Source of the DNA: a virus
Lineage: Duplodnaviria > Caudoviricetes
Reading direction: 5' to 3' (one strand)
IMG/VR virus record: IMGVR_UViG_3300022178_003667
Coordinates: 1-38,734 of that record
DNA: 38,734 nt
The notes below the pieces were generated by a model. The model made no database searches, was not told where the DNA came from, and saw nothing but the letters and a program-made list of their open reading frames with translations. The translations under genes were made by a program, and so were the position numbers. Below are positions 16,266-38,630 of the stretch, piece after piece. Position 1 is the first letter of the stretch. The number at the start of each line of letters is the position of its first letter.

Positions 16266-16529
16266 TTATTGGCTTTCCATAAATTCTTTTATTTCGTCTA
16301 TTAACCAACCTTTAGATTTAAACCAATGTTGTTTATACATATGCTTAGTAAACGCCAATAACAGTTCACGTTGTTGCATAACATCGCATATAAGTAATTT
16401 ATTTAACTTACTTTCAGCATCCATAAACTCTTGTTCGCAATCATCTAAGCAAGGTAATAAATCACCGTCTATTTGGTTATTTTCTACTAAATCCCAACTT
16501 TTATCTATTAATTCTCTAATTGTTTTCAT
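16266..16529 (-). CDS. Hypothetical protein starting in the loop of site C and reading through its arm (LLICDV|MQQ)
   Basis: ORF track plus site coordinates. Confidence 0.7.
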   Translation of the reverse strand: MKTIRELIDKSWDLVENNQIDGDLLPCLDDCEQEFMDAESKLNKLLICDVMQQRELLLAFTKHMYKQHWFKSKGWLIDEIKEFMESQ

Positions 16530-16583
16530 TTCTTGTTTTTTTTAATCGTTAAATAAACTACTCATATACGTAATACGTTGGCA
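16376..16583. repeat. attC-like site C (long loop)
   Basis: GCATAAC-ATC-GCATATAAGTA...TACTCATATAC-GTAATAC-GTTGGCA. Confidence 0.75.
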
Positions 16584-16628
16584 ACAATAAAATAAAAAAA
16601 AGGGCGCTCACTGTTGCAGTTGTACGTG

Positions 16629-17378
16629 TTAAAAAAGGCTTTGTTGGTTATTTTTGTAATTTGTCACTAATATTTCAGTTCTTTTGTTTTTAAGGTTTTG
16701 TCTTTCACCTATATAAACGATATTCAATCCTCTTTTTTGTGCTTGTTCAATAATAAATGGGTGGTCAAACTCACTAACTGCAAATTTATGTTTAGTGCTT
16801 TCAAGGCAATTAAAAAGACTTTCACTTTGTTCTTCAGTAAAACTACTAGAGTAATTATCAGCAGTTCCTAAATATGGTGGGTCACAGTAAATAAAACAAT
16901 TACCTCTAAACTCAATACCTTTCAAAAACTTTTCAAAGTCCATATTTGCAAACTGAACATCTTTTATAAATTCAAAAGTTTTATCTAAATATTTATAGAC
17001 ATTTAACTTATCATTTCTTGCTCCTAACCTCATTGTACTTCCTCTACCATTTAAAACAAAATTAGATAATGCTAAAAACCTTAACGCTTTTTTTACAGGA
17101 GTATCTTCTTCATTTTTTAACCAATATTTTATTAAGTCAGAATGTAAAGGCATTATTTCAAATTGTCTTTCTAATTCGTCTTTTTGGTTACTTACAACTT
17201 GAAACAAATTAAACACATCAGAGTCTAAATCATTAACAATATTATAATTAACTTTTGGTTTATTAAAGAACATACCTCCTGCACCAAAAAACGGCTCAAC
17301 ATACATATTATGTGCAGGAAAATAACTTTGTATATGTTCAGCTAACTTCTTTTTATTTCCTAATCTTCTTAAAATCAT
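16629..17378 (-). CDS. Dam-like (D12 class) N6-adenine DNA methyltransferase, cassette cargo
   Basis: GNKKKL, EPFFGAGG, VNDLD, YCDPPY. Confidence 0.9.
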   Translation of the reverse strand: MILRRLGNKKKLAEHIQSYFPAHNMYVEPFFGAGGMFFNKPKVNYNIVNDLDSDVFNLFQVVSNQKDELERQFEIMPLHSDLIKYWLKNEEDTPVKKALRFLALSNFVLNGRGSTMRLGARNDKLNVYKYLDKTFEFIKDVQFANMDFEKFLKGIEFRGNCFIYCDPPYLGTADNYSSSFTEEQSESLFNCLESTKHKFAVSEFDHPFIIEQAQKRGLNIVYIGERQNLKNKRTEILVTNYKNNQQSLF

Positions 17379-17430
17379 TACGTGTTATTTGGTTTTTATC
17401 AAAACCACGCCCTTTTTTTTATTTTACAGT

Positions 17431-17563
17431 AGCCAACACTGTATAAAGTTAATAGCTACTTTTAGCGTGTTTAAGATGTTATTTAATTAATTCAATACTC
17501 TTTGTTTATTTATTAAAGTTAGTGTTTTAAATACGCTACTAACCTTATACGATTCCGTTAGAG
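17431..17563. repeat. attC-like site D
   Basis: AGCCAAC-ACT-GTATAAAGTTAATAGC...GCTACTAACCTTATAC-GATTCC-GTTAGAG. Confidence 0.8.
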
Positions 17564-17566
17564 TAG

Positions 17567-17597
17567 CAAAGATATACTAATTTTTCATAAAAACAAA
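17567..17597 (-). promoter_or_regulatory. Host-type promoter facing array 1 and the replication operon (Pc-like position)
   Basis: Minus strand TTTG-N19-TATCTTTG, 4 nt from site D. Confidence 0.7.
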
Positions 17598-17606
17598 TTA
17601 ATTAAC

Positions 17607-17632
17607 ACAAAAAAAATAAAATAAGTTATCTT
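17607..17632 (+). promoter_or_regulatory. Phage late-promoter motif
   Basis: ACAA-N14-GTTATCTT before the tail operon. Confidence 0.7.
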
Positions 17633-17650
17633 TTTATACAAAAATACAAT

Positions 17651-18361
17651 ATGAATCATAGTTTAGAGCTAAAAATACCAAAGACATTAAGGAACATAAG
17701 ATTACATCAATGGGTTAAGTTTTTAGATATTTATGAGAAAAATAAAGATTCAGAAAACCAAGAGTTTTTAAATAAGAAGGTTTTAGAGATATTTTGCGGT
17801 GTTTCTTTGAAAGAAATATATAAAATACCAATATCTAGCTTTGATGCTGTATTAAGTCATATATACAACTTGTTAAACTCTAATACACCTTTAATTAGAA
17901 CATTTAAACTGAAAGGAGTTGATGATGTAGAGGTGGAGTTCGGTTTTATACCCAACCTAGACAAAATGTCTTATGGAGAGTGGGAAGATTTAGAGAATTA
18001 CATACATGAACCTAAGAATCTACATAAAGCAATGGCTGTATTATACAGACCAATAGCCTTTAAGAAGAAAGATAGGTACTTAATTCACGAATATAAAGGA
18101 AGTGAAGAGTATTCGGAAGTAATGAAGGATATGCCAATAGATGTAGCTCTAGGTGCTAAGGTTTTTTTTTATCGTTTAGCGAGAAAATTAGGGGATTATA
18201 CGATGGCTTATACTCTGAAAGAGTTACAGGAGAGAGAGGAGAATCACTTAAACGAGGATTCGGAAAAAAATGGGGAAGTTATCAAGCAATATTTGAACTC
18301 GCTGGAGGTGATGTCGGAAAAATTGACGAGGTTACAAAGCTTCCAGTACACCAATGTTTAA
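17651..18361 (+). CDS. Tail assembly chaperone (G-like)
   Basis: 236 aa with an internal T9 slippery run and an open -1 frame. Confidence 0.6.
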   Translation: MNHSLELKIPKTLRNIRLHQWVKFLDIYEKNKDSENQEFLNKKVLEIFCGVSLKEIYKIPISSFDAVLSHIYNLLNSNTPLIRTFKLKGVDDVEVEFGFIPNLDKMSYGEWEDLENYIHEPKNLHKAMAVLYRPIAFKKKDRYLIHEYKGSEEYSEVMKDMPIDVALGAKVFFYRLARKLGDYTMAYTLKELQEREENHLNEDSEKNGEVIKQYLNSLEVMSEKLTRLQSFQYTNV

Positions 18362-18429
18362 TGTATTTAGAGTACGTTAAAGAAAGAAATGAGTTAGAAA
18401 ATAAAATGGCAAAACAAGCACTAAGATAA
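18163..18429 (+). CDS. -1 frameshift extension of the tail chaperone (GT-like)
   Basis: T TTT TTT at 18163-18169; -1 frame open to TAA 18427-18429 (…FGKKWGSYQAIFELAGGD…LMYLEY…), TAATG-coupled to the next gene. Confidence 0.7.
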   Translation, partial: FFLSFSEKIRGLYDGLYSERVTGERGESLKRGFGKKWGSYQAIFELAGGDVGKIDEVTKLPVHQCLMYLEYVKERNELENKMAKQALR

Positions 18430-18887
18430 TGAACCATGTTTACAATATATTAGACGTTATAAAAGACGAATTAAGAGCAAATCCATCAGTAAATACTGTT
18501 ACTTATGGTGATATAGCAGATATAGACCTAGATAAGACTACAATGTTTCCATTATCACACATTTTAATAGAGAGTGCTGTTTATGGAGAAAGAACGGTAA
18601 CTTTTACTATAAAGATATTATGTGCGGACATTATTGACTACAACAAGTTTAAGAGTGATTTTGATGATTTCTACGGAAATGACAACCTACACGATGTTAC
18701 AAATACACAGTTCGAGGTCATAAACTCATTAATAATGAAACTAACTAGAGGTGATTTATTTGCAGGTAACTATCAAGTAACTACAAGACCTTCCGCAGAG
18801 CCATTTAAAGAGCGTTTTGCGAACGTTTTAGCAGGATGGAGTGTTTCTTTTCAGGTAGAGGTTCAAAATGGCATAAGCATCTGTTAA
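18429..18887 (+). CDS. Putative tail terminator/completion protein
   Basis: 152 aa; FPLSH...PFKERF.N.LAGW; synteny. Confidence 0.5.
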   Translation: MNHVYNILDVIKDELRANPSVNTVTYGDIADIDLDKTTMFPLSHILIESAVYGERTVTFTIKILCADIIDYNKFKSDFDDFYGNDNLHDVTNTQFEVINSLIMKLTRGDLFAGNYQVTTRPSAEPFKERFANVLAGWSVSFQVEVQNGISIC

Positions 18888-18888
18888 A

Positions 18889-19404
18889 ATGGATGAAAAC
18901 CTAAACATAGGGTTAGAGACTGTAGGTAAACTTATAACAGACAAGTTAAAGGTTGTTGCTAAGGAGGATGGGTTTTATTCATCAGGTAAACTAGATAATG
19001 CTTTTAGGTATGAAGCAGCGGCAAATAACCTAGCTATTTTTAGTGCTAAATATGCAAGAGCCTTATCTGACGGAGTTACTAAAGACAAGTCTTACTCTAA
19101 AGTAGGTGAGGATTTTAAAAATTCTATACTTAAATGGGCAAAAATTAAAGGAATGAGACCTAACACTAGAAATAGCAAAGGTCAATTCAGTAAAATAAAA
19201 GATTATCATTGGAACTCAATGGCTATAGCGTTAGCTATAGGTATAAGAAGAAATGGTATTTCTAAAAGATTTGGATATAAAGGTAGTGGATTCTTTGATA
19301 CTATGCAAGACCAATTAAAGGAACAAATAAGAACAATCCTAAGTGATAGTTATAAAATGGATTTAAAAACACAAATAAGAAAAGATGGCATTAATACTAA
19401 CTAG
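18889..19404 (+). CDS. Putative neck/tail completion protein
   Basis: Basic; SGKL...ILKWAKIKG...GIRRNGI pattern. Confidence 0.5.
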   Translation: MDENLNIGLETVGKLITDKLKVVAKEDGFYSSGKLDNAFRYEAAANNLAIFSAKYARALSDGVTKDKSYSKVGEDFKNSILKWAKIKGMRPNTRNSKGQFSKIKDYHWNSMAIALAIGIRRNGISKRFGYKGSGFFDTMQDQLKEQIRTILSDSYKMDLKTQIRKDGINTN

Positions 19405-20584
19405 GAGTCCATATTATATAAGTAGAGCTAATTTAGATGATGGAGCTGTATTGACATTAGATATAGGTAATATTGATGTTTTTGACTTTAATATATTTAA
19501 AACATATACTTTAAATTTCAGGTCTAAACTATTTGTAGACATCTCTCCATTAATAAGGGATTGGTTTGAAGCCACGTATACATATAACACATCTCAATAT
19601 GATGTAGATAAAGGACAGAAAAATATAGTATATGTAAGAACAACTTTAGCTGGTAATATAAGTGGTGTTTCTCAGACTTCAATAGAAGGAGAGTATTTTG
19701 CTACTGATGGTTACCTGTATGGTACTGATGACTACAACGAAGATAAAAGTGATTTTCTTAGGAAAAATGCTTACTATACAGGAAGTTCAGACACGATATA
19801 TAAGTTAGACGATTCTAATATTAGATTAACATTCTTAAAAACAGATGATGATTTAATACCTGTATTCCCAATACCTACAAATCCTGTTTACATAAAGTAT
19901 TACAATAAAGGAGTTGTGGTACAAGAAAACCAATTCTTTCCAGATGATGACGATTCTGAAACTTACTACGAAACTGTATCTAACTTAGATTACGACTCTT
20001 ATAAAGCTAGAGTTTCTAGCGATAGCGGTACTTTTGAAATTTCAAAGTGCTTAAACTCATTCTTCAGGGAGTTTAGTTTAGATGAGGTAGATGAGATATT
20101 ACTATCATCACAGCCTTACGGTTTTACAGACAATATTGTGAAAAAAATAAAAGTAAATACAATATCGGAATGCAAATACACTCCTTACAGAATAACCTTT
20201 AAAAACAGATTTGGTGCTGATGAGGATTTATGGTTTTTCAAGAAGTCATCTAAATCACTAAAGGTTTCAAAAGAAGATTTTAGGTCTAATGAGTTTAAGG
20301 CATATAATGCAGGAGAGACAACTAGACAAATGCAACAATACAATAAAAATGGAAGAGAGTTATTGACGTTAAATTCTGGATTTGTTGTAGAAGAATTAAA
20401 TAAATCATTTAAACAATTAATGTTATCAGAGGAAGTTACTTTATACGACTTTAAGAATGACATTACAAGTGCTGTTAATATAACAAACGGAGAGCTAGAG
20501 TACAAAACGGTAACAAACGATAAATTGATAAATTACACGATAGATGTGGAATTTGCTAATGATGTAATAAATAACATTGTTTAA
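19385..20584 (+). CDS. Putative distal tail/baseplate protein
   Basis: RSPY...ECKYTPY.ITF.N.FG...LNSGFV; tail module. Confidence 0.55.
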   Translation: MALILTRSPYYISRANLDDGAVLTLDIGNIDVFDFNIFKTYTLNFRSKLFVDISPLIRDWFEATYTYNTSQYDVDKGQKNIVYVRTTLAGNISGVSQTSIEGEYFATDGYLYGTDDYNEDKSDFLRKNAYYTGSSDTIYKLDDSNIRLTFLKTDDDLIPVFPIPTNPVYIKYYNKGVVVQENQFFPDDDDSETYYETVSNLDYDSYKARVSSDSGTFEISKCLNSFFREFSLDEVDEILLSSQPYGFTDNIVKKIKVNTISECKYTPYRITFKNRFGADEDLWFFKKSSKSLKVSKEDFRSNEFKAYNAGETTRQMQQYNKNGRELLTLNSGFVVEELNKSFKQLMLSEEVTLYDFKNDITSAVNITNGELEYKTVTNDKLINYTIDVEFANDVINNIV

Positions 20585-23355
20585 TGAGATTACAACCACA
20601 ATTATATATAGATACTAGCGGAAACCCTTTAGGAGAGCCTAATTTTGAGAGGGTAGATTTCTTTAACTTTGAAGAAATAGAATTAACATCGTCTATACAA
20701 GATGTTAGAGATATATCTAAGGTGTTCACAGATTTCTCACAAGAGTTTTCTCTACCTGCATCTAAAACTAATAATAAGATATTTAAGCACTACTATAATG
20801 TTAGTATAGATAACGGATTTGATGCTAGAATAAAGCAAAAAGCAGAGATTTACTTAAATGGTTTGTTTTTTAGGTCTGGATATATTAGACTATCTGAATC
20901 TGTGGTTAAAAATGGTTCTGTTTACTCGTATAGGGTAACTTTCTTTGGAGGTATGACAAACCTAAAAAATATAATAGGCGATACAGAGTTATCAAGCCTA
21001 ACTACATTAGATAAATACAATCACGAATACAATATAGATAACGTTTATGATGGTTTTAAGACAGGTTTAGGTCTTGAAGGTGATACTATGGTATTGTCTG
21101 AAAACAGAGACGTAATATACCCATCTATATCAGCATTAAATAAGTGGTTTTATGATAGTTCTGGAGAGAGTGCGCCATCTAGTTTAGTTTTTGCACAAGG
21201 GAAATCTACAAACCTTTATGACTCTAACTTAGACGGTTCTCATGGGTTAGATTTTACAGACCTAAAACCAGCTATAAAAGTAAAGCATATTGTTTCGGCA
21301 ATACAAGATAAGTACGCAAGTATAAACTTTTCTGATGATTTCTTTGGTTCGGAGCATTTTGACAAGGCTTATATGTTGCTTCACAACTCTAAAGGATTAC
21401 TTGCACCAACATCAAATCCTGATACTTCTGCATCTATAACTTACAGAGTTGGTACTAATGATGAGGATTCTGATTTTGAGCTAGATGTTACTTATCAAGA
21501 GCAGAGACCGATGGAAACGTTTTGGGAAAATGGAGGTTTGTTAAAAACAGATGTTCAGCAGTATCATATTATACCTAGCGTAACTGTATTATCTCCATTA
21601 ACAGGTAATTTATACACTATAGAGGTTTTAGACGGAACTAATGTTATTGCTAAGGCAGAAAATGTAACAGGAGATAACAGCTTAACGGCTATATTGTGTT
21701 CTGAGAACGTAAAGATATGGGATGATATATCTGTAAGAATAAGCTCTAATGGGTTTTTGAATACTTATGAGTTAGATTTAGAAATAAAACAAGTTAGATA
21801 TAGAACAGACTCTATAAGTGTATCTTGTGATGGCGCAGGAATACCTAGCGACACATTATCTTCTTTTTACTCTACATTTGTAGGTACGCAAGTGCTTTTA
21901 AGTAAAATTGAAATAACAAAGAATGTTCCTAAAATGAAGATTTTAGACTTCTTGAAAGGGCTGTATAATGCCTTTAATTTAACATCTTTTGTGGATGATA
22001 ATGGTGTTATTGTAGTGAAACCACTTCCAGAATATTACAATGACGGAAACACTATAGATATAACTAAATTTGTAGATAACGAAGATATTTCTGTAAAAAG
22101 AATGAGTCTTTACAAGAATGTAGAATTTAAGTTCTCTGAGCCTAAAACTTTTGGTATTATAAATAAAAACGAAATATCACAAGTAGAGTTTGGGGATTTG
22201 GAATTTGAGTCTTCTGCTGACGGTACTAACTCTAGTTTAATATTTGACGGTAAGAACTACAAAATACAACTACCTTTTGAGAAAATGTATTTCGAGAGGC
22301 TTTCTGACGAAAATGATTTACAAGACTTTACACCTATGAGTAATGGATGGTTAGCTGATAGTAACCAAAGCCCTACTATCACAAAACCTATATTGTTTTA
22401 CAATATTTCACAAGCTGTTAGTTTTTCTAGTTACAAGTTAGGGTTTTTAAGTAAAGGGGGTTTTTCTACATATAACAGGGCTAGTAATAATACGCTAACA
22501 AGAGACAGAAGTTTGAATTTTGGTATTGAGTTTGATGAATTTTCAGGGTTAGAAGTAACCAATAGTTTGTTTAGTCGGTATTATAGCGAATACATATCTA
22601 CTATATTTGACAAGCGGACTAGAATATTTGACTTAAAAATGAAGGCTAATCTAGGTTTTTTACTAGACTATAATTTAAACGATACCTTGCTAGTTAAGGG
22701 AGAGGAGTTTATCATAAACAACATAAGGACTAATCTAACTACAGGTTTAACGGATATTGAGTTAATACTTAAATTCCCTACGGTAGTTCCTTCGGTAGTG
22801 CCTAGTTCACCACCAACAACACCTACTGATTTAACATTAGCTTTTGCTGGTAACTATAGTTTGACATTTAATTGGGGTGCTAGTACGGATGATTCTGAGT
22901 TGGTTGGTTATAATATTTATATTGATAGCGTTCTTTATGATACAATAGCGGTATTTACAGAATATACTGCTTTTAATTTAGATATAAATACATCTTATCA
23001 GATTCAAGTATCTGCGTTAGATGATGACGGAAACGAGTCTTCATTAACATCTATTGTTGCAATGAGTACAACTAATACAAGAGATGTAGTACCTCCATCA
23101 CAACCTCAAAACATTAGATATAGTAATATCTCTGATACTACCATAAACTTAGAATGGGATGCTAGTACAGATAATATTGGTGTTGTTGGATATGATATTT
23201 ACATAGACGGAGTGAATACTTACACAGTAGCAGGGTTAAGTAAAGAGATTACATTATTAACATCAAGAACAGATTACTTGGTTAAAGTACAAGCGGTAGA
23301 TGGCGCAGGTAACGTGTCTATCTTTAGTGATACATTAAATATACAAACATTATGA
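20584..23355 (+). CDS. Tail hub/baseplate protein with two C-terminal fibronectin type III domains
   Basis: FTDFSQEFSLPASKTNNKIFKH N-terminus; two FN3 repeats (W.ASTD...GY.IY...Y..QV.A.D..GN.S). Confidence 0.75.
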   Translation: MRLQPQLYIDTSGNPLGEPNFERVDFFNFEEIELTSSIQDVRDISKVFTDFSQEFSLPASKTNNKIFKHYYNVSIDNGFDARIKQKAEIYLNGLFFRSGYIRLSESVVKNGSVYSYRVTFFGGMTNLKNIIGDTELSSLTTLDKYNHEYNIDNVYDGFKTGLGLEGDTMVLSENRDVIYPSISALNKWFYDSSGESAPSSLVFAQGKSTNLYDSNLDGSHGLDFTDLKPAIKVKHIVSAIQDKYASINFSDDFFGSEHFDKAYMLLHNSKGLLAPTSNPDTSASITYRVGTNDEDSDFELDVTYQEQRPMETFWENGGLLKTDVQQYHIIPSVTVLSPLTGNLYTIEVLDGTNVIAKAENVTGDNSLTAILCSENVKIWDDISVRISSNGFLNTYELDLEIKQVRYRTDSISVSCDGAGIPSDTLSSFYSTFVGTQVLLSKIEITKNVPKMKILDFLKGLYNAFNLTSFVDDNGVIVVKPLPEYYNDGNTIDITKFVDNEDISVKRMSLYKNVEFKFSEPKTFGIINKNEISQVEFGDLEFESSADGTNSSLIFDGKNYKIQLPFEKMYFERLSDENDLQDFTPMSNGWLADSNQSPTITKPILFYNISQAVSFSSYKLGFLSKGGFSTYNRASNNTLTRDRSLNFGIEFDEFSGLEVTNSLFSRYYSEYISTIFDKRTRIFDLKMKANLGFLLDYNLNDTLLVKGEEFIINNIRTNLTTGLTDIELILKFPTVVPSVVPSSPPTTPTDLTLAFAGNYSLTFNWGASTDDSELVGYNIYIDSVLYDTIAVFTEYTAFNLDINTSYQIQVSALDDDGNESSLTSIVAMSTTNTRDVVPPSQPQNIRYSNISDTTINLEWDASTDNIGVVGYDIYIDGVNTYTVAGLSKEITLLTSRTDYLVKVQAVDGAGNVSIFSDTLNIQTL

Positions 23356-23504
23356 TAAGAGATATGTTAGATTTATTAGCTAGTAATGATTGGCTAGTAC
23401 AAGATGAAGATATGCAAATAGCTAAAGGGTTATACGAATACCCTTTAACATTTAAGGAATTAAAAATGAGTATTAAACGTAGAAAAGCACTAAATGGCAG
23501 ATAA
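23352..23504 (+). CDS. Small hypothetical protein (50 aa)
   Basis: ATGA-coupled; MIRDMLDLL...IAKGLYEYP. Confidence 0.5.
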   Translation: MIRDMLDLLASNDWLVQDEDMQIAKGLYEYPLTFKELKMSIKRRKALNGR

Positions 23505-29412: not shown

Positions 29413-29430
29413 TAGAGAAATAAATAAGTA

Positions 29431-29462: not shown

Positions 29463-29486
29463 TTGTTTAAGTTATACGCAATTAAG

Positions 29487-30052: not shown

Positions 30053-30068
30053 AGGTCAAATATACGAA

Positions 30069-30557
30069 TTATTTATAAACTGACAAATATCTTTGCAAGT
30101 TTTTTACTATTTTAGCAACACAACTACTACAAGATGTATTTCTATTCTCGTTATATGAAAAAACATAGTTGTAAATATCTACCAATCTTTGCTTTTCGCT
30201 AAAATCAACCTTACCTTTATAATTATTGAAGAAATTGGTTAGAAAGATATAATCTTCTTCCGTAACGCATTTAACCGTCTTATACTTAAAAATATCGTTC
30301 CACTCATCTTTTCTTTCATCACAACCACAATCATCACCTGCAATAAACTTAACAACCTTATCTATACCAGTAGCTTTAGTTATTTTAGCGACAGTATCTC
30401 CCAAACCTTTAGGTTGCTTCTCTATATTTTCTTTTAAAGAGTTGTAGTTATTCTTAGATAACCATTCCTTGTACTCCCTATAATCTTTAGACCTTTTATC
30501 TATTGTTTCGTAGTAACCTTTTTTCTCTAACTCTATGTAATACTTATCTTCTTTCAT
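30069..30557 (-). CDS. Conserved phage protein (KGLGDTV.KITKATGI...CGCDERK...C..C)
   Basis: Recognisable motif; Cys pairs suggest metal binding. Confidence 0.75.
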   Translation of the reverse strand: MKEDKYYIELEKKGYYETIDKRSKDYREYKEWLSKNNYNSLKENIEKQPKGLGDTVAKITKATGIDKVVKFIAGDDCGCDERKDEWNDIFKYKTVKCVTEEDYIFLTNFFNNYKGKVDFSEKQRLVDIYNYVFSYNENRNTSCSSCVAKIVKNLQRYLSVYK

Positions 30558-30560
30558 TAT

Positions 30561-31094
30561 TTATTTAATTTTATGATAATCTTTATTAAAATAATCTTGC
30601 AAATCTTCTGATAACTCAGCCCTAACAATTTCTCTGTAATTTTGGATAGAGTTATGTATAGAACTAAGACCAATACCTGTTTCTTTAGATATCTTTCTTA
30701 AAGAGATTCCTTGCATAAAATATATCTCAAACAGCCTTTTATCGTACACAGTCCAATCTTTAGTAATATCTTTAATTTTTGTATTTAGTAAATCGAAAGC
30801 TATATTTTCATCTTCATCATATAAATCGTCATCAACAATATCTTTATCTAGTAAATCAAATTCAGGATTTTTATTCATTTTCTTTAGTCTTGAAAAATAC
30901 ATATTTCTTAAAGTAATGTAAACATAATACCTATTTACATCATCCCTATACATTATCCTAGACTCATCCTTAACTAAATCATAAAGCCTAAGATACATAT
31001 CTTGAACAATATCTTTAGCTAATACAGGATTGCATCCTAAGTTCACAAGCATCTGTAACCATAATACGTGATGTTTCGCAAGTTTATCTAACAT
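30561..31094 (-). CDS. ECF-like RNA polymerase sigma factor
   Basis: Region-2-like AKDIVQDMYLRL and region-4 HTH SLRKISKETGIGLSSIHNSI; 177 aa. Confidence 0.75.
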   Translation of the reverse strand: MLDKLAKHHVLWLQMLVNLGCNPVLAKDIVQDMYLRLYDLVKDESRIMYRDDVNRYYVYITLRNMYFSRLKKMNKNPEFDLLDKDIVDDDLYDEDENIAFDLLNTKIKDITKDWTVYDKRLFEIYFMQGISLRKISKETGIGLSSIHNSIQNYREIVRAELSEDLQDYFNKDYHKIK

Positions 31095-31489
31095 TAAATC
31101 TCTTTTATTATTATTTCTACTCTAGGATTATCTCTATCAATTTCCGTAGGCAGGATTGTCTCTTTCTTAACAAATTCATCATTATCATCTTCCCAGCACC
31201 CACACTCAGTAATTGCATCTAATAAATACTTACTTACAACACTTACTACATTCATTTTATCTAAACGTCTTTTAGAGCCTTTTAAGACCTTATAAGTAAC
31301 TTCAACAGGCGTTAGTATAGAAAGACCATCCAACTGCTCTCTAATCGCCTCTAAATACCTTATTTTAGCATCATTGTTTATTCTGTGATGCAGATTTCTG
31401 TAAGTATTCATATTTAAGTACACTCTTTTATCTTTTTTAGTCTTTCTTGGTAAATCTACAAATAAAGGAGATGTGATTTTATGAATCAT
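31094..31489 (-). CDS. RusA-like Holliday junction resolvase
   Basis: RRLDKMN...LLDAI...DDN...PRVEI; ATG 31489 preferred. Confidence 0.75.
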   Translation of the reverse strand: MIHKITSPLFVDLPRKTKKDKRVYLNMNTYRNLHHRINNDAKIRYLEAIREQLDGLSILTPVEVTYKVLKGSKRRLDKMNVVSVVSKYLLDAITECGCWEDDNDEFVKKETILPTEIDRDNPRVEIIIKEI

Positions 31490-31658
31490 TGCTTTGTAGT
31501 TTTTGAATATAAAGACAAGCATCCATTAACTCTTCCTTTAGGTGTTGTAAAAAATCATCCTTATTATTGTCTTGTAATGTTGTATTGTACTTGGTAATAC
31601 CTATACAACTTCTTATATCAAACTCTTTCTTTAAATCTTCTACTATTTTATCTTTCAT
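31479..31658 (-). CDS. Small phage protein, possibly MazG/dNTP-pyrophosphatase-like fold
   Basis: GITKYNTTL...LQHLKEELMDACLY. Confidence 0.5.
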   Translation of the reverse strand: MKDKIVEDLKKEFDIRSCIGITKYNTTLQDNNKDDFLQHLKEELMDACLYIQKLQSNDS

Positions 31659-32056
31659 TATAAATCCATTTTGACATTGTTCCACCTACTTATAGCTCCC
31701 AACCTACTATTCTCCGAATGAGTCACAAACCTAATATTCCCAATAATATATCCCTTTGATGAATCTATCCTATCTATTGATGGAGATAATTTATTATTAT
31801 AATTAGAATTAACCCAATCGTTATACAAAACCTCAAATCCGATTGATTCTAATGCCCATTTATAGAAAACATCCCTACTTAACAACTCAAGCCCTTTGTA
31901 GATATAAGACTTGTTTTTCTGAACACCCTTAACTCTTCTGCTCATGTTATTATAGGTTAACATTAATTTACCTTTAGGTGTTTTCCAATACCTACTATTG
32001 TTTAAAGACAATGAATTTAGTTTATCTTTTTTTGTTAAATATTTTTTACTTGCCAT
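31658..32056 (-). CDS. HNH-type endonuclease
   Basis: PSIDRIDSSKGYIIGNIRFVTHSEN. Confidence 0.75.
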   Translation of the reverse strand: MASKKYLTKKDKLNSLSLNNSRYWKTPKGKLMLTYNNMSRRVKGVQKNKSYIYKGLELLSRDVFYKWALESIGFEVLYNDWVNSNYNNKLSPSIDRIDSSKGYIIGNIRFVTHSENSRLGAISRWNNVKMDL

Positions 32057-32805
32057 TACTTAAATTTTGATACTTTGCCATAATTCTCTAAAATCATTGG
32101 AACGGCAATAGCTTCTTTACCACCAATTACAACACCACAACCAATAGCAGGTTTCTTTCCTGCTTTAGCATATCCAAACGCATACTGCTCGTGGTCTATT
32201 CCACAACCAACTTGCATACCAAACACTCTATTTTTACGACCTACAATGTATTCAACGTACAGCTGAGTGTGTAAATGTCCTTGCACTACAGATTGTAAAT
32301 CATTTTTACATTTACCTCTAGCGGTTCCGCCTTCTCCATGAGCATACAAAACCCCATCATGCTCTAATTCTGTATGAAATCTCCAATTAGGAACACCAAG
32401 AACTTCATTATATTCTCTAATCCATTCTCTAGGAATACCTCCTGATTGTGCTTTTCTCATTATAAGTCTACTATGGTTACCTATGATTACATCAACGTTA
32501 GGAAATTGTTTATAGTATCTTGCTAACCTCTTTTTAGCAAATTCTAATTCTTCTCCACCACCCATTCCGTTAGCATCTGTTTCGTGATAAGAGCTGTAAT
32601 GGTGGTCTAATTCATCGCCAATATGCACAACTTTGTTACAGTTGTATCTTTCGTAAGTGTCAACCAAGAAATCTAAGTAAGTACATAAATCAAATGGGCA
32701 ATGAGTGTCCCCTATAATTAAAACCCTACTTTCTTCGCTAGTCCATTTATCGTACATCTTTTTTACCTGACCTCTTAATCTAGGTCTAAATGATTTTTTA
32801 GTCAT
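32056..32805 (-). CDS. Calcineurin-like metallophosphoesterase
   Basis: GDTH, GDELD, GNH, HG and GHLH motifs. Confidence 0.88.
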   Translation of the reverse strand: MTKKSFRPRLRGQVKKMYDKWTSEESRVLIIGDTHCPFDLCTYLDFLVDTYERYNCNKVVHIGDELDHHYSSYHETDANGMGGGEELEFAKKRLARYYKQFPNVDVIIGNHSRLIMRKAQSGGIPREWIREYNEVLGVPNWRFHTELEHDGVLYAHGEGGTARGKCKNDLQSVVQGHLHTQLYVEYIVGRKNRVFGMQVGCGIDHEQYAFGYAKAGKKPAIGCGVVIGGKEAIAVPMILENYGKVSKFK

Positions 32806-32887
32806 ATTATTTATATTTATATAAATGTATTAATTTATGTTATTTTTTAAAAATATACTTATTAACAAATATATTGTTGTTTTAATT

Positions 32888-33145
32888 TTAAATATTTTCT
32901 AAGTCTATTAATATCTTTTTTAAAGCATCAGAACAATCATCATAATCATTACTAATTAGTGCTTTCTGTTCATCTATTCTTTTGATTGATAAAAATTTTT
33001 TACCTACCCAAATACCAAAACTCCTTCCGTTTTCAACTAATCTTATATAGTTCCCAGTTTTTTTATTGTAGAAGATTGTATTTATATCATTTAAAATAAT
33101 ATGATTCCATTCTTTCAAAGTGTAATTCAAGGCATTTTTATCCAT
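32888..33145 (-). CDS. Hypothetical protein
   Basis: ORF track. Confidence 0.6.
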   Translation of the reverse strand: MDKNALNYTLKEWNHIILNDINTIFYNKKTGNYIRLVENGRSFGIWVGKKFLSIKRIDEQKALISNDYDDCSDALKKILIDLENI

Positions 33146-33294
33146 TTATAAAGGTTTTTTGCTTTGGTTAAAGTCATATTAATAGTAGTTAGAGTTAATA
33201 TGGTGCTAGATGCCTATCCATTACGTTCAGCGACCATCTATAATTTACTAAGGTAATTGCTGAAACATTATCCCTTTCAATCGCACCATACTAA

Positions 33295-33427
33295 CAATAA
33301 CAATGTATATAAAAAATAGGGGGTGGCGTAGTCAAACCTAATTGTTTCTTTACTAAATTACCACTGGCGAAACGTCTATTATGTACCTATTTTAAACCCC
33401 TAAATTTCATATACTTTAAAGTTATAT
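33295..33427. repeat. attC-like site E
   Basis: CAATAAC-AAT-GTATATAAAAAATAGGGG...CCCCTAAATTTCATATAC-TTTAAA-GTTATAT. Confidence 0.8.
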
Positions 33428-33435
33428 GCAAGTGC

Positions 33436-34200
33436 TTAATGTTCGTGCAATATCAATTCTATGTCCTTTAAATCTTTTTCTTTTATTTTTTTTTCCATCC
33501 TCTCACTCGCAACCTTAAAATATTCATCATTTAATTCCATACCTAAAAAACGCCTATTTGTGTTCAAACAAGCTATTCCAGTAGAGCAACTTCCCATTGT
33601 ATTGTCCACAACTAAATCGCCTTCATCTGTAAATAAGTTTATTAAAAACTCGTTAAGTTCTACATTTTTTTGAGTTGGGTGCAATTGAGGGCTAAACACA
33701 TTCGTATATTTTAAAACTGTTCTTGGATAGCCTGTTTTAGTCATTGTGTATTCATTACTTCTGCTTCTTCTTGTTCCATAAACACCACTTTCGTCAGGTC
33801 TTTTAACTTTCTTATTGCAATCTTTTAAAGTTGGGTTGTATTTAGGTAATTTTTTGTAAAATACTAATATATTTTCGTGGCTTCTTAAAGGCATTTTCTT
33901 TGCGTTAAAGAAGCCAACAGGTTTTGTTTTTTCCCAAATAATTTCGTATCTAAAATATTTTCTATAAGCATTAATCAAATCACTTGCAAAAGGTTGTTGT
34001 GCATAAAGTAATATTATACCATTATCAGTAATTATTCTATCATAATGCTTAAATAAAATATCTAAATCAAGGGTTTTATCCCATTCGTTTTTATCAGTAG
34101 TTCCATAAGGTAAATCACATAAAATCATATTTACGCTTTTATTAGGTACTTCTTCCATAATTTTAAGGCAATCACCTTTTAATAAACTTAATGTATTCAT
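33436..34200 (-). CDS. N4/N6 DNA methyltransferase (beta class), cassette cargo
   Basis: GDCL, CDLPY, IIWEK, HPTQK, DNTMGSCSTG. Confidence 0.9.
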   Translation of the reverse strand: MNTLSLLKGDCLKIMEEVPNKSVNMILCDLPYGTTDKNEWDKTLDLDILFKHYDRIITDNGIILLYAQQPFASDLINAYRKYFRYEIIWEKTKPVGFFNAKKMPLRSHENILVFYKKLPKYNPTLKDCNKKVKRPDESGVYGTRRSRSNEYTMTKTGYPRTVLKYTNVFSPQLHPTQKNVELNEFLINLFTDEGDLVVDNTMGSCSTGIACLNTNRRFLGMELNDEYFKVASERMEKKIKEKDLKDIELILHEH

Positions 34201-34289
34201 TTTGCTATCGCAATTTGCCCTCGCTCAAAAATAAAAGAAAAAGGGTCGGTTAATAATTCAAACTTTTGTGCTTTAAAGTCGCACCAGAC

Positions 34290-34421
34290 ATATAACAACG
34301 TATATAAAAAAGGCGGTGTAATTTATTGAGTATCGGAGCTATCTGCACGTCTGCAAGGTCATTGCCACAATAAACGTCACTTACTTTTAATCCGCCCATT
34401 TCATATACAAGTACGTTGGTA
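34290..34421. repeat. attC-like site F
   Basis: ATATAAC-AAC-GTATATAAAAAAGGCGG...CCGCCCATTTCATATAC-AAGTAC-GTTGGTA. Confidence 0.8.
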
Positions 34422-34443
34422 ACAATTGCTAAAAAAAGCCACC

Positions 34444-34944
34444 TCACTCGGTCGGCTCACTCTTAATGAAACAAATCCAATGAGTTTGCATAGCTTTTCC
34501 GCTTTTATGTCCGTAAAGCGGTTTTTCTTCTGTTAAAGCTAAGATTTCTTTTATTGGTATTCTACATTCATTCCATTTAAAAATTAGTGTTCCATTTGGT
34601 TTTAATACTCTAAAACATTCTATAAATCCTTTTCTTAACATTTCTTTCCAATCACCGGTTAAATGTCCATATTGTTTACATATTGCACCAGTCATAGTTT
34701 TTTGTGGTATATGTGGTGGGTCAAAAACAATATGGTAAAATGAATTATCTTCTTGTTTTATATTTGTAAAATCCCCTATTTCATCAGGTTCAACTATTAT
34801 ATTTCTATCATAGCCATCTTTTCTTTTTATTATGTGTTTCTCTTGTCTTTTATCTAAAAACAATGCTCTTTCATCTTGTTTATTAAACCACATACTTTTT
34901 GGCCCACAGCAAACATCTAATACTTTTTTCCTACTCATAATCAT
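34444..34944 (-). CDS. SAM-dependent (DNA amino-)methyltransferase, cassette cargo
   Basis: VLDVCCG..SMWF, VFDPPH, ECFRVLKPNG.LIFKW; start placed inside the cassette (34944 or 34938). Confidence 0.82.
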   Translation of the reverse strand: MIMSRKKVLDVCCGPKSMWFNKQDERALFLDKRQEKHIIKRKDGYDRNIIVEPDEIGDFTNIKQEDNSFYHIVFDPPHIPQKTMTGAICKQYGHLTGDWKEMLRKGFIECFRVLKPNGTLIFKWNECRIPIKEILALTEEKPLYGHKSGKAMQTHWICFIKSEPTE

Positions 34945-34986
34945 TTTATTTTTTTGCAAAAATAAGTGGCTTTTTTTATCAACAGT

Positions 34987-35117
34987 AACCAACAACGTAT
35001 ATAATTTATTGCTGCTAATCACTGTTTTACCAAGTTATTTTTATTATTTATACTATTCTATTATTTAATTATTTCAGTTCTTTAAATCGCAACAAACCAT
35101 ATACAAATACGTTAGCA
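34987..35117. repeat. attC-like site G
   Basis: AACCAAC-AAC-GTATATAATTTATTGC...GCAACAAACCATATAC-AAATAC-GTTAGCA. Confidence 0.8.
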
Positions 35118-35121
35118 TTAA

Positions 35122-35382
35122 TTAAGATTCTAGCCAATCTGCATAAGATTTGAAGTTATCAGCACTTTCAACGTGCTTAATTATAGATTCCAAATCATTA
35201 GGTATATATAACCAACTTGCAGATAGTTCCCAACTATAATTTTGCCATATATTACCGCACTCATCTAGTGTGCAAAGTATATCTCTGTGCAATACCAATG
35301 CTTTTTGTATTCTAATCAAATCTTCTTTAGGTTCTTGCTTATGGTATTCGTCTGTTACTATTTGGTCTCGTAAGTGTATCAT
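35122..35382 (-). CDS. Cassette cargo, hypothetical protein
   Basis: Fills the G-H cassette. Confidence 0.7.
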   Translation of the reverse strand: MIHLRDQIVTDEYHKQEPKEDLIRIQKALVLHRDILCTLDECGNIWQNYSWELSASWLYIPNDLESIIKHVESADNFKSYADWLES

Positions 35383-35392
35383 AATTAACTAA

Positions 35393-35489
35393 TGCTAACA
35401 ATGGCTATAAATAAAAGCCTTTGCTAAGGTTATTTCTTTGAATCAATCATTTGTTATACGGCTTCAATTCATAGCCGTAGCCGTTGGTA
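35393..35489. repeat. attC-like site H
   Basis: TGCTAAC-AAT-GGCTATAAATAAAAGCC...GGCTTCAATTCATAGCC-GTAGCC-GTTGGTA. Confidence 0.8.
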
Positions 35490-35523
35490 ACAATTGCTAA
35501 AAAAGCCACCTCACTCTTGTAGC

Positions 35524-36429
35524 TTACTCATATTCGTGAAAATTGAATATATTAGTTTGATAATTTATTTCTTGATGCGTTTCACTCACTTCGTCTAAAT
35601 CTTTTACACCACAAGCTAAACCATTGCAATCTGTTAATGGTTGTGGTGGTCTGCCTTTCATCATTGAAATATCTTTTATGTTTGGGTAGTCTGGGTGCGG
35701 TTTTAGAAATACTAAACCCCCTCCTTTGCTTTGGTCTTTTAACATTGTTACGGGTTCGCCTTTTAAGTCTGTTAGTTCGTGTTCAATCTTAGACATTGCG
35801 TTAAATTTAGAGAGCCATATTCCACCCATGTCCCTAAATTTTTGCCAGTACCCTATTCCTCCTTGCACGCAACCTCCAGTTGTAGGGGTTGAACCTAAAC
35901 AATTGTTATTTAAAAATCCTAGTACATAAGCCATTGGTAATTTTAAACCTTCATCTTGTATTAACTGAACACAATCTTTTTTTGTATATCCGTACATCAA
36001 TAATGGAAATATAGGTTTTGCAGTTTTACGATAATTGTTAACCATAGATTTAACTCGTCTAATTTCATCAACATCAAATCCAAATGCTTGTGCTTGGTAA
36101 CTATTTTCTTTTTCCCATTCTTTTCTTAATTGTCTTTTTAATTCAGAAGAACAAACTGCACCACCAGCAACATTTAAAGATTTGTATTTATACCAAACAT
36201 CTTGTATTTTTTCATACTTTTTACCTTTACCTATTCTTGTAATAGTTTCAATTTCCTTACCATACCATTTTTCACAGTCTTTTTTAAATCTGTAAGTGTC
36301 TTCATCTTCATTAAATGTATCAATGAAAATTAATCTTACGTTTTCAACTCCATAAATGTCTATGCAAAGTTTACAAGTTACTGCACTTGTAACACCACCA
36401 GACCACCAACCTATTATTTTATTTTTCAT
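35524..36429 (-). CDS. PAPS-reductase-like (PP-loop adenine nucleotide alpha-hydrolase) protein, cassette cargo
   Basis: WWSGGVTSA PP-loop, EDEDTYRF, C...LK, GF.NNNC....GCV.GG.GYW. Confidence 0.75.
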   Translation of the reverse strand: MKNKIIGWWSGGVTSAVTCKLCIDIYGVENVRLIFIDTFNEDEDTYRFKKDCEKWYGKEIETITRIGKGKKYEKIQDVWYKYKSLNVAGGAVCSSELKRQLRKEWEKENSYQAQAFGFDVDEIRRVKSMVNNYRKTAKPIFPLLMYGYTKKDCVQLIQDEGLKLPMAYVLGFLNNNCLGSTPTTGGCVQGGIGYWQKFRDMGGIWLSKFNAMSKIEHELTDLKGEPVTMLKDQSKGGGLVFLKPHPDYPNIKDISMMKGRPPQPLTDCNGLACGVKDLDEVSETHQEINYQTNIFNFHEYE

Positions 36430-36653
36430 AATTCTATAATTTCTTTTGTTTCTTCTTTAAAATAATCCCTTGCCATTTCTAAATTAGAGTAACTTAAATC
36501 ACAAGGTAATAATTCTGTAAAATATCCATTTAACCAAAGTTCATCGCTTTTATATCTTTTCCAATACCCCCCAAATAAATTAAAAAACCATTTGTTTTTA
36601 TAATATTCTGGATAATACCTATTACCTTCTTTTACTATTCTTTTATCACTCAT
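36426..36653 (-). CDS. Cassette cargo, hypothetical protein
   Basis: ATGA-coupled to the PP-loop gene. Confidence 0.65.
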   Translation of the reverse strand: MSDKRIVKEGNRYYPEYYKNKWFFNLFGGYWKRYKSDELWLNGYFTELLPCDLSYSNLEMARDYFKEETKEIIEL

Positions 36654-36701
36654 ATTCTTTATTTTAATTTTTCAAATTAATGTGGCTTTTTTAGCAACTG
36701 T

Positions 36702-36832
36702 AACCAACAATGTGTATAATTTAGTGCTACTAATCGTCTGTTTAACCACTTATTTTTATCATTTACACTATTCTACTATTTATTAATTTTCTTGCTTTAA
36801 ATCGCACCAAACCATACACAAATACGTTGGTA
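36702..36832. repeat. attC-like site I (paralogue of G)
   Basis: AACCAAC-AAT-GTGTATAATTTAGTGC...GCACCAAACCATACAC-AAATAC-GTTGGTA. Confidence 0.8.
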
Positions 36833-36842
36833 GTAATGTGCC

Positions 36843-37136
36843 TTACTTATTAAATAGTTCAGGCTTATAAACAGATTTCTTGCAATAATCCTCTAACTTT
36901 ATGTATTGGTTATCAGGGCAACACGCAAGATATTTCTTATCTATTACTTTAGTGCTTAAACTTCCACAGCCAGTGCATACTTTCGGCAAACTACAACCAA
37001 CATCGGTTATAATTAATTGTTCAGTCACGTAATCATAAGCAACATCATTTATTTCTTGTCGCTTATCTACTGGCACTTCTGCTAAATCAAAGAGTTGTGC
37101 CACTATTCCTATTGCTTGTTTTTCTAAATTTTTCAT
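36843..37136 (-). CDS. Hypothetical protein starting in the loop of site J (QLIITDV|GCS), with Cys-rich C-terminus
   Basis: ORF track plus site coordinates; CTGC...CC. Confidence 0.7.
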   Translation of the reverse strand: MKNLEKQAIGIVAQLFDLAEVPVDKRQEINDVAYDYVTEQLIITDVGCSLPKVCTGCGSLSTKVIDKKYLACCPDNQYIKLEDYCKKSVYKPELFNK

Positions 37137-37193
37137 TCTATTTAATTTTTTGTTTTAATAAATCACAACTAATCATAACCACATCCGTTATAA
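36995..37193. repeat. attC-like site J (long loop)
   Basis: AACCAAC-ATC-GGTTATAATTAATTGT...ACAACTAATCATAACC-ACATCC-GTTATAA. Confidence 0.8.
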
Positions 37194-37364
37194 AACATTT
37201 TTTTTAATAAACTTAATCCATTCTTCCATAGTTAAGTGTTTGTGAAAAATACCATCAGTACTATATTGTATTAATTTAGTGCCATCTAAAAGAGCAGAGT
37301 AACGTATATTATTGCTAAGGTCTATATTTTTCATTTCTGTTCTTTTTAATTTACTTATTTCCAT
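37188..37364 (-). CDS. Cassette cargo, hypothetical protein (58 aa)
   Basis: Manual translation MEISKLKRTEMKNIDL...; TAA stop overlaps the GTT core of site J. Confidence 0.6.
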   Translation of the reverse strand: MEISKLKRTEMKNIDLSNNIRYSALLDGTKLIQYSTDGIFHKHLTMEEWIKFIKKNVL

Positions 37365-37375
37365 AAAAAAACTTT

Positions 37376-37505
37376 TAATAACACTGTATATAAAAAATAA
37401 AGTGTTAGTGATTAATATTAATTTTCAGCTAATCTAAGTACTATTTTTGTAACCACCAAATAAAAGTATACAATTCTTTAAATTTCATATACAAATCAGT
37501 TATCT
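37376..37505. repeat. attC-like site K
   Basis: TAATAAC-ACT-GTATATAAAAAATAAAG...CTTTAAATTTCATATAC-AAATCA-GTTATCT. Confidence 0.75.
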
Positions 37506-37720
37506 ACAAGTTTCTTCTGGTTCGTGTTCCTTTACATATTTATAGAATCTACATAAAGCTTGTTCATACCTTTTTTTGGCTGTGCTATTTGCAAATGCCA
37601 TAGGTGTTAAATCGAAAATTACAGATATCTTGGTATTTGATAGCTGTAATTCTTTTTTTAGAAGTCTTTCTTGGTTTTGCTTATCTTATAAGCATCAAAT
37701 ATTGCTATATTGTATATCAT
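37500..37720 (-). pseudogene. Chimeric pseudogene: 20 codons of an 8441-like gene joined out of frame to a start-less HTH-like cargo remnant
   Basis: 37720-37661 is 55/60 identical to 8441-8500, then TAA; another frame reads LKKELQLSNTKIS...KKRYEQALCRFY...TAA ending on the K core. Confidence 0.6.
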
Positions 37721-37738
37721 TGGTTTATTGTTTAGTTA

Positions 37739-37930
37739 TTAGTACACTCTTATTGTGCATCTATTATTAATTATATTAAACACTTCCTCATGGTACTCTT
37801 CTGGTATACCTTCCTCGTTTATAGCATCTTGTATTTCTTCCATTAACGTATCTATTACTGAAGATTCCCATACACTACAATTAGCAGCATAATCCATTAC
37901 TTTCTGTTTTCTTTTTTCTTCTGGTGTCAT
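37739..37930 (-). CDS. Hypothetical protein
   Basis: ORF track. Confidence 0.6.
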   Translation of the reverse strand: MTPEEKRKQKVMDYAANCSVWESSVIDTLMEEIQDAINEEGIPEEYHEEVFNIINNRCTIRVY

Positions 37931-38058
37931 ATCTTTATATTTTTACTGGTTAATTGCTCCTTTAAGTACCTTCTGCATTCAGCATCACTTTTGCTATGTC
38001 TAATTTTATTATAAGTAGAATTATCTATATTGCTTATAAAATTTATTATATTTTCCAT
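37927..38058 (-). CDS. Loop-encoded ORF of truncated site L (43 aa)
   Basis: MENIINF...YLKEQLT-SKNIKI; ATGA-coupled to the next ORF. Confidence 0.5.
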   Translation of the reverse strand: MENIINFISNIDNSTYNKIRHSKSDAECRRYLKEQLTSKNIKI

Positions 38059-38118
38059 TTGTATTTATTTAATTTGTTTTTATTTATCCGCAACTAACTT
38101 TAACCATATAAGTTGTGT
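37949..38118. repeat. attC-like site L (left arm truncated)
   Basis: Intact right half GCAACTAACTTTAACC-ATATAA-GTTGTGT; only GTTAATTGC of the left arm remains. Confidence 0.6.
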
Positions 38119-38186
38119 GTAATGCGGTTGGATAACCGTTCTGTAAAAGCTACATCATTACGTAACCGCACTACAAGCCTTTCGGC

Positions 38187-38314
38187 ACACAACTATGGTT
38201 AAATGTAATACCTAACCAATAGTAATGTCAAAACTAATTATATCATTCATAATCGCTTATTTATAAAATTATAGTAGTTTTTCTCGGCACTACACTTAAC
38301 CGTTTAAGTTGTAA
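38187..38314. repeat. attC-like site M
   Basis: ACACAAC-TAT-GGTTAAATGTAATACC...GGCACTACACTTAACC-GTTTAA-GTTGTAA. Confidence 0.8.
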
Positions 38315-38319
38315 ACAAT

Positions 38320-38472
38320 TTACTTACCTCGTGGTACAAAGAAAGTCCAAGTTTTTGCTTGTGGGTGTTCTGCTCTCCAAATTTTGTATTTAATAAACCC
38401 AATTCCGTAAATAAGACCACAGAATCCTAATATAATTAAAGCAATAGTAAAATTTTCTTTTAGTTTTTTCAT
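38320..38472 (-). CDS. Cassette cargo, small single-pass membrane protein (50 aa)
   Basis: MKKLKENFTIALIILGFCGLIYGIGFIKYK...; read manually. Confidence 0.6.
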   Translation of the reverse strand: MKKLKENFTIALIILGFCGLIYGIGFIKYKIWRAEHPQAKTWTFFVPRGK

Positions 38473-38630
38473 CGTAAACAATTTACAACATCGGTTAAAG
38501 TTAATTGCTTTTTTAGGTATTCTATATTATTAAAATTTAACCTAATGTAATCTCCTGTTTGTAATTTAATGTTTAAATAACCATCTTTTATCCAATGGTC
38601 TTTAACGTTTGGTAATTTATTTATGTCCAT
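38469..38630 (-). CDS. Loop-encoded ORF of site N (53 aa), ATGA-coupled to the cargo
   Basis: MDINKLPNVK...YLKKQLTLTDVVNCLR; read manually. Confidence 0.55.
   Translation of the reverse strand: MDINKLPNVKDHWIKDGYLNIKLQTGDYIRLNFNNIEYLKKQLTLTDVVNCLR

Follow-up and report, generated by a model that had tools for sequence, protein, structure and literature searches.

Hairpin sites and the reading frames that cross them

The window analysed here comprises all 38,734 nucleotides (nt) of IMG/VR record IMGVR_UViG_3300022178_003667, a complete 38.7-kb virus record (Caudoviricetes), and our subject is a set of integron-like hairpin sites within it, some of which carry in their loops the first half of a protein-coding gene. 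The genes called in the window include portal, terminase, an Erf-like annealing protein, RusA, three DNA methyltransferases and a gene of the PAPS-reductase family. In blastn searches the window matched the phages P12002L/S, and its cassette region matched phages of Polaribacter, Cellulophaga and Tenacibaculum; the host is thus inferred to belong to the Bacteroidota.

A structure scan with the pattern AAC-N5-stem...stem-N2-GTT identified 12 hairpin sites in the window, all on the minus (gene) strand, and none in 10 block-shuffled windows. As in attC sites, inverted R boxes (YAAC ... GTTR) close an imperfect hairpin, both in these 12 sites and, as judged by pairing, over 369 phage sites. The sites form two clusters, one of three sites and one of nine sites plus a broken one, L; with at least two attC-like sites and no neighbouring integrase, the window qualifies as an attC cluster without integrase (CALIN). 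Nine of the sites are 89–125 nt long and hold no long open reading frame (ORF), and the other three, C, J and N, measure 191–200 nt. Minimum-free-energy folding of entire long loops often missed the pairing of the arms and was not used. The sites had no Rfam match at E values up to 1, and Flavo-1 RNA, a lead to their identity, was not matched in that search.

Site C is a long-loop attC-like hairpin of 200 nt (16380–16579, minus strand; AAC at 16579, GTT at 16382–16380). Its ORF (16266–16529, minus; 87 amino acids, aa) places 49 aa in the site, uses the GTT core as a Val codon and continues for 38 aa into the downstream body. Site J (36999–37189, minus; 191 nt, GTT at 37001–36999) carries a 97-aa ORF (36843–37136, minus) made of a 45-aa loop half and a Cys-rich body half of 52 aa, and in site N (38487–38681, minus; 195 nt, GTT at 38489–38487) a 53-aa ORF (38469–38630, minus) consists of a 47-aa loop half and a 6-aa tail. 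All three cross the right arm with GAT-GTT in frame, reading KLLICD-VMQQ in C, QLIITD-VGCS in J and QLTLTD-VVNCLR followed by a stop in N, where the hyphen precedes the Val of the core. The preliminary description of this DNA had reported gene starts in these three long loops and in the truncated L, and in-frame crossing in the intact ones; both observations hold at all coordinates on the minus strand, with front halves of 49, 45 and 47 codons in C, J and N. The loop ATG lies 50–53 nt past the AAC in these sites and 56 nt past it in L.

Of site L only the left arm is left (38090–38114, minus; AAC at 38114). Its 43-aa ORF (37927–38058, minus), a 37-aa loop half followed by read-through, is real, but the residues YLKEQLT, earlier taken as the point where the arm breaks off, are not the arm itself: intact relatives (loci L487 and L502) continue after LT with KQLTLTD-V and carry two different C-terminal halves, so YLKEQLT precedes the arm and the entire right arm has been lost.

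The short tail of N is out of register with the cargo of its body, a 50-aa gene with its own ATG (38320–38472, minus). As described previously, the TGA of the N frame (38469–38471) overlaps the cargo ATG (38470–38472) as ATGA. It had been proposed that such loop ORFs are leaders that license translation of the cargo. For N this is not supported, since the same cargo body recurs in another phage (L422) behind a short non-coding loop, again with its own ATG; for the same reason the VVNCLR tail is best taken as a join made out of register. Neither in Pfam nor in PHROG did C, J, N or L reach the threshold of any family; leads from the ESM Atlas, among them a cluster with a Tad8 domain at 0.83, all stayed below threshold and were not counted.

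Frame matching and re-pairing of protein halves in related phages

We compared these sites with 373 phage-type loci (1.49 Mb) collected by five motif scans and from named isolates; nine loci of the record itself (L448, L508–L515) and 134 host loci were kept out of the phage counts. Among long loops without a seed motif of the scans (hereafter unseeded), 65 of 80 loops of 150–239 nt carry an ATG-initiated ORF of at least 28 codons that reaches the GTT, versus 3.9% of 16,000 loop shuffles. The ATG lies 50–59 nt past the AAC in 155 of 196 coding long loops.

At the GTT, 43 of the 80 unseeded loops are in the Val frame, 22 in a frame that reads Cys (typically INYT[RH]-CC), none in the third frame, and 15 have no frame. 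These counts vary with the seeds excluded; an earlier, smaller set of 47 gave 22 Val, 20 in the second frame, none in the third and 5 without one. Stops in the arm account only partly for the empty third frame: considered by itself, the arm is open in 72, 60 and 27 of the 80 loops for the three frames. Bodies match the loops to which they are joined: the body is open for at least 20 aa in the loop's own frame in 40/43 cases of the Val frame and 16/22 of the Cys frame; for the other frame in use the figures are 0/43 and 3/22. A single body core even occurs with heads one base apart, each fitting one frame (L453 versus L023/L443). Frame matching far above chance, together with these alternative heads, indicates that the join is kept in frame. 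The fixed frame proposed from C, J and N is therefore true of those three but not general, as two frames are used and the third practically never.

We note that a motif recurs in body heads, at positions of about +9 to +24 (xQQRELL, xGRSEQL, xPKGTL or KSDSEQL), at 16358–16382 in the window and in many other loci. It often contains a second GTTA; it seems to adapt the frame, and exchange may take place there as well.

Purifying selection acts on both halves, with ratios of nonsynonymous to synonymous polymorphism (pN/pS) of 0.19 for 40 loop families and 0.16 for 37 body families. A CxxC motif is present in 86/371 back halves and in 2 front halves. Products with a short tail, N included, account for 8/91 coding long loops.

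The earlier suggestion that the same N-terminal halves might occur with different C-terminal halves joined at the Val was borne out for J, C and relatives of N and L. The front half of J (44/45 aa identical) is joined to an unrelated body in L009, and its back half (49/52 identical) stands behind an unrelated front in L018 and again behind another front in L403. The front half of C has other C-terminal halves in P0002 and P0003, and its back half has another front in P0004. Fronts related to that of N carry three or more longer, unrelated C-terminal halves (P0009, P0010/P0011, P0012, L107). Over 371 coding junctions, seeded ones included, 45/50 loop families and 41/48 body families seen at least twice have more than one partner; exact duplicates were removed before counting, so that unchanged pairs are undercounted in these figures. 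Thus pairings are not constant and the frame is not random, as they would be had the idea been wrong. The proposal that the loops act as translation-start or N-terminal modules is supported as well, and this role appears likely.

The breakpoints cluster at TGTT. With seed-forced pairs excluded, 66/72 pairs with the same loop share at most 4 nt after the GTT (29 share none), which is near the level seen for unrelated pairs, and 34/38 pairs with the same body share at most 5 nt before it. In triples that are not seed-forced, the partner forms share at most 9 nt around the core in 21/30, and only TGTT in seven, that of J among them. Among recent swaps, taken as loops at least 97% identical, divergence sets in right after the GTT in 13/24 and within 4 nt in 23/24.

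We also observed that the 5-nt spacer after the AAC varies between otherwise identical loops, and that the contig of L009 holds two long-loop sites that face opposite ways at a distance of about 2.1 kb. Cleavage at the L box was considered as a source of the swaps and rejected, as the 2-nt spacer follows the loop and not the body.

Two rates of exchange and their probable mechanism

The preliminary description had left two possibilities, exchange at the Val to give fusion proteins, or a strict attC rule under which loop and gene move together. Both operate, at different rates. In 26 pairs with loops at least 98% identical, 13 changed only their upstream neighbour, 6 changed on both sides and 7 on neither; below 98% identity both sides had changed in 44/45 pairs. 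Near-identical isolates of the Polaribacter phages Danklef and Freya gave five pairwise comparisons with an internal indel, all five breaking at the upstream AAC, and Freya_10 differs from Freya_9 by one whole loop-ORF cassette adjoining a 271-aa integrase. Contigs added three independent AAC-to-AAC deletions. From these pair comparisons, isolates and deletions it follows that the routine unit is the loop plus its downstream body, with the gene moved intact and the crossover at the upstream AAC, and that exchange at the Val is slower, yet complete once loops differ by 2–7%. The isolate differences are gains and losses and not inversions. In the Freya phages four different bodies abut one AAC located 50 nt ahead of the integrase ATG. 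Contigs aligned to 33000–38734 of the window have unitig ends at the AAC sites 37189, 38310 and 38683; a single joint with 30-nt sides, connecting the arm of N to a different body, was too weak to count.

Freya (L347–L353) seems to have a complete integron-like platform, with a 271-aa tyrosine recombinase (QQV91304.1), the AAC ahead of its ATG as putative insertion point, and an array that varies between near-identical isolates. In Danklef (L344–L346) the recombinase is interrupted, and its remnant begins at a site arm.

The strands of the sites differ in pairing. Per site, the gene (AAC-first) strand forms 1.18 G.T pairs and the other strand 0.07 (369 phage sites); being the better-pairing strand with G.T pairs, the phage gene strand is the 'bottom' strand in attC terms. 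The crossover thus falls in the 5'-AAC of the G.T-rich strand, as in classical attC sites, and body ends are complementary, as in the circular form of an integron cassette (Nivina et al. 2016, PMC5027507, in its available part): the first six head and tail positions pair in 66–90% of 303 phage bodies versus 26–48% after shuffling. Unlike in classical attC, pairing in the stems stays in register for 16 positions and includes two conserved G.T columns, without a bulge or extrahelical bases, the spacers are asymmetric (5 and 2 nt) in place of a roughly symmetric central spacer, and the genes lie on the recombining strand downstream of the site. Indeed, the gene is on the AAC-first strand in 77/80 phage bodies versus 3/265 host bodies; the usual cassette orientation, with the gene on the top strand followed by attC, is found in 262/265 host bodies and not in the phages.

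These phages therefore carry reversed cassettes that recombine at the AAC, and their genes are re-paired in frame at or just after the GTT, with selection acting on both halves. The explanation we favour, and consider probable on the sequence data, is that integron-like sites are used back to front and that a tyrosine recombinase able to cut either arm re-pairs the halves in frame. Each hairpin precedes its gene, a long loop supplying the start codon and the first 45–50 codons. Whole cassettes, loop and downstream body together, are gained or lost at the upstream AAC, and a slower swap replaces the body behind a loop at or just after the GTT, nearly always with matching frame. For the slow swap, hairpins would fold and recombine on the 'top' strand, where the GTT of the gene strand is read as a 5'-AAC; one such event would join loop 1 to body 2 and release a circle of body 1 with loop 2, and this circle could be taken up again by the routine route. 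As phage genes pass through that R box, exchange at the second arm would give a fusion protein, and joins that do not match would yield short by-products such as N. A phage without its own recombinase would borrow one from a host array or a co-infecting phage. In classical attC sites, according to the part of the work available (PMC5027507), top-strand recombination places the cut in the other R box and occurs 1,000–10,000 times less often; absence of the extrahelical bases favours it.

Several observations weigh against this mechanism. Downstream-body-only change was seen in none of the 26 pairs with loops at least 98% identical, and no clean GTT-to-GTT excision was caught, the single arm-to-arm case being ambiguous and bounded by a 14-nt repeat. 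P0002 and P0003 keep 8 and 4 residues after the Asp (the first 4–8 body residues of C), 9/30 triples share 11–23 nt, enough for microhomology, and the stems themselves are exchanged, the arm being kept at 80% identity or more in only 26/36 same-loop pairs. Unsampled intermediates could hide homology-driven routes. No integrase or recombinase gene is present among the window proteins, and tblastn of the window with two recombinases gave nothing below E 1.4. In the available part of the published work, P12002L_attC1, whose arm type occurs in the window, is the sole one of six sites not recombined by IntI1, and attC2 worked (PMC9892861). Finally, no RNA or protein evidence for the loop ORFs was found (one RNA run matched, with a share of 0.06).

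As to purpose, a wider reading is that Bacteroidota phages maintain a natural two-part combinatorial protein library, in which a non-IntI recombinase would cut both arms of bulge-free hairpins and re-pair hundreds of N- and C-terminal modules in two frame classes, with chimeras selected, for example, for host takeover or counter-defence; we offer it tentatively. The swaps could also be a by-product of no selected combinatorial value, the halves being small independent domains for which any in-frame join is tolerated. The lack of Pfam or PHROG families for the halves, the persistence of short-tailed products and the turnover of pairings within 2–7% loop divergence agree with this, but frame matching far above chance and body heads that fit either frame indicate that the join is kept in frame. 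We regard a by-product as possible, if somewhat doubtful; it concerns purpose and not mechanism, and can hold together with recombination at either arm.

A different mechanism would have the swaps made by homology, through an Erf-like phage protein or the host RecA, with the site-specific enzyme acting only at the AAC. Exchange would then take place within the conserved arm, over 20–25 nt, or within heads that bodies have in common, such as VSQQRELL. The window does encode an Erf-like single-stranded DNA annealing protein (14077–14652, minus), and the swaps in P0002 and P0003 lie beyond the body head. The longer identities in 9 of the 30 triples point the same way, as do L398 and L449/L456, which differ by a 78-nt insert between 14-nt repeats. 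Stems have moreover been replaced around unchanged loop interiors (L023/L101, L059/L208; also L050/L114 and L208/L357), sometimes with a change of frame class. Most joins nevertheless offer little to pair with, given the at most 9 nt common to partner forms in the majority of triples and the immediate divergence of recent swaps; furthermore, the head travels with its body in 44/52 same-body pairs. Homology as the source of the swaps therefore seems unlikely, and top-strand recombination ranks above it, although both may contribute.

According to a third explanation, very improbable in our view, the loops are merely leaders: a strict attC rule keeps each with its gene, in fixed pairings, and their role is to initiate cargo translation or to couple it. 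The fresh events do carry loop and body together, the loop ATG is regularly spaced from the AAC, and the stop of N overlaps the ATG of its cargo. As a full account it is contradicted by the re-paired relatives of J and C; it also conflicts with the several bodies found in 45 of the 50 loop families, with the constraint on the N-terminal halves and with the cargo of N, which starts by itself in L422. Assembly chimeras at repeats can be dismissed almost entirely: most loci are indeed metagenome assemblies and unitigs break at the sites, but the 4–9 nt common at many joints are below assembly word length, the joins are frame-matched, and cultured isolates show both the cassettes and, in Freya_10 versus Danklef_1, an identical body with a different arm.

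Host arrays, known systems and further features of the window

Sites of this kind are also present in bacteria. One 23-nt arm motif occurs in at least 141 GTDB stretches listed, with about 1,100 estimated, and the 80 titles among the matches listed are Bacteroidota, mostly Flavobacteriaceae. Host sites are uniform: 352/380 measure 120–139 nt, and a coding loop is present in 3. Because the loops vary so little, the host arrays could not rank the two crossovers. A tyrosine recombinase of 375–404 aa closes the array at the same end in 8/134 host loci. The five tested all score 196–214 against TIGR02249, below its cut-off of 265, and in the recombinase of L264 the IntI-specific insertion is missing, with residues ~199–248 of IntI4 (2A3V) facing only 5 residues. 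The linked enzyme thus differs from that of classical integrons.

Some further features of these loci were observed. Flavobacteriaceae chromosomes (L209–L342) hold large homogeneous arrays of sites of about 123 nt, and the non-IntI tyrosine recombinase lies upstream of them and is oriented like the cassette genes. The same host cassette body can have different loops at both ends (for example L227/L268). In L264, two right arms (13883 and 14531) lie beside the recombinase with no left arm detected, possibly as attI-derived or damaged sites.

CALINs were reported in virulent phages including the Polaribacter phage P12002L (Qi et al. 2023, PMC9892861), and the window resembles them in its AAC/GTT R-box hairpins between accessory genes, its DNA methyltransferase cargo and the lack of an integrase in cis. 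The available portion of that paper does not mention coding loops, reversed gene orientation or shuffling of N- and C-terminal halves. For classical attC sites the top-strand route gives inverted, silent cassettes (PMC5027507, part available); here second-arm exchange would give in-frame chimeras. Translated synthetic attC sites were proposed for combinatorial shuffling of modules (Nivina et al. 2020, PMC7439510, part available); that system is engineered, whereas the phage layout is natural and its shuffled products are observed, making it the natural counterpart of the proposed engineering trick. Freya and Danklef were described by Bartlau et al. (PMC8776804), in whose main text, as available, the words 'cassette' and 'integron' do not occur, and IntegronFinder 2.0, in the portion available, recorded few complete integrons in Bacteroidetes (PMC9024848). 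In the literature searched, whose coverage left out most subscription papers, we found no description of natural coding loops or of half-shuffling.

The phage system also differs from the shufflons: all 12 window sites face one direction, cassettes are gained and lost, and variation across the phage community affects the two halves alike. In shufflons such as that of R64 (pilV/Rci), a tyrosine recombinase likewise exchanges protein C-termini in frame and site-specifically, but it does so at a single locus, where segments flanked by oppositely oriented sites are inverted behind an N-terminus that stays constant.

The phenomenon is thus real, widespread and more than a leader: it is a form of integron-like cassette recombination in which the halves of proteins are re-paired. 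In its working it resembles an integron, from which it departs in three defining features, namely gene orientation, extrahelical bases and the IntI insertion. Integron cassettes are known to shuffle whole genes, and here the site lies within genes whose halves are re-paired in frame. This offers a mechanism for the many short phage proteins without a family that have only a ...LxxxDV/S... junction in common, and it calls for caution, as proteins sharing only that junction cluster as mosaics. The data further suggest that Flavobacteriaceae harbour a large system of integron-like kind, whose recombinase scores below the IntI cut-off. With the cultured, integrase-bearing Freya phages, crossover at both arms can be tested directly, a matter of consequence for how cassettes gain or exchange their attC; should the combinatorial-library reading be true, second-arm exchange would explain how they change it.

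The remaining sites and cargo of the window all lie on the minus strand. Two short non-coding sites (16140–16257, 118 nt; 17435–17559, 125 nt) complete the first cluster with C; between C and the second of them is a DNA methyltransferase gene (16629–17378) whose body ends are 30-nt inverted repeats (16577–16606 and 17408–17437). The short sites of the second cluster are located at 33299–33423 (125 nt), 34294–34417 (124 nt), 34991–35113 (123 nt), 35397–35485 (89 nt), 36706–36828 (123 nt), 37380–37501 (122 nt) and 38191–38310 (120 nt). The 89-nt site has the arm type of the published P12002L_attC1 oligonucleotide (PMC9892861, part available). Cargo in this cluster includes two further DNA methyltransferase genes, at 33436–34200 and at 34444–34944 (listed as an ORF from a GTG at 35022, the first ATG after the site being at 34944), and a two-gene body at 35524–36653 with a 75-aa ORF and the PAPS-reductase-family gene. 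The 120-nt site is followed by a gene-less body of 76 nt (38115–38190) whose ends are strongly complementary. A 65-aa ORF starting with GTG (34250–34447) traverses the entire short site at 34294–34417 in the Cys frame, possibly by chance.

Elsewhere in the window, a 64-nt stretch at 8436–8499 has an inverted copy at 37662–37725 (92% complementary). It derives from the start of an early gene (8441–8635), and the second copy lies inside the damaged L region. Two tandem 49-nt repeats (9429–9526) are situated where divergent gene blocks are separated by a long non-coding stretch, which may be an origin or a control region.

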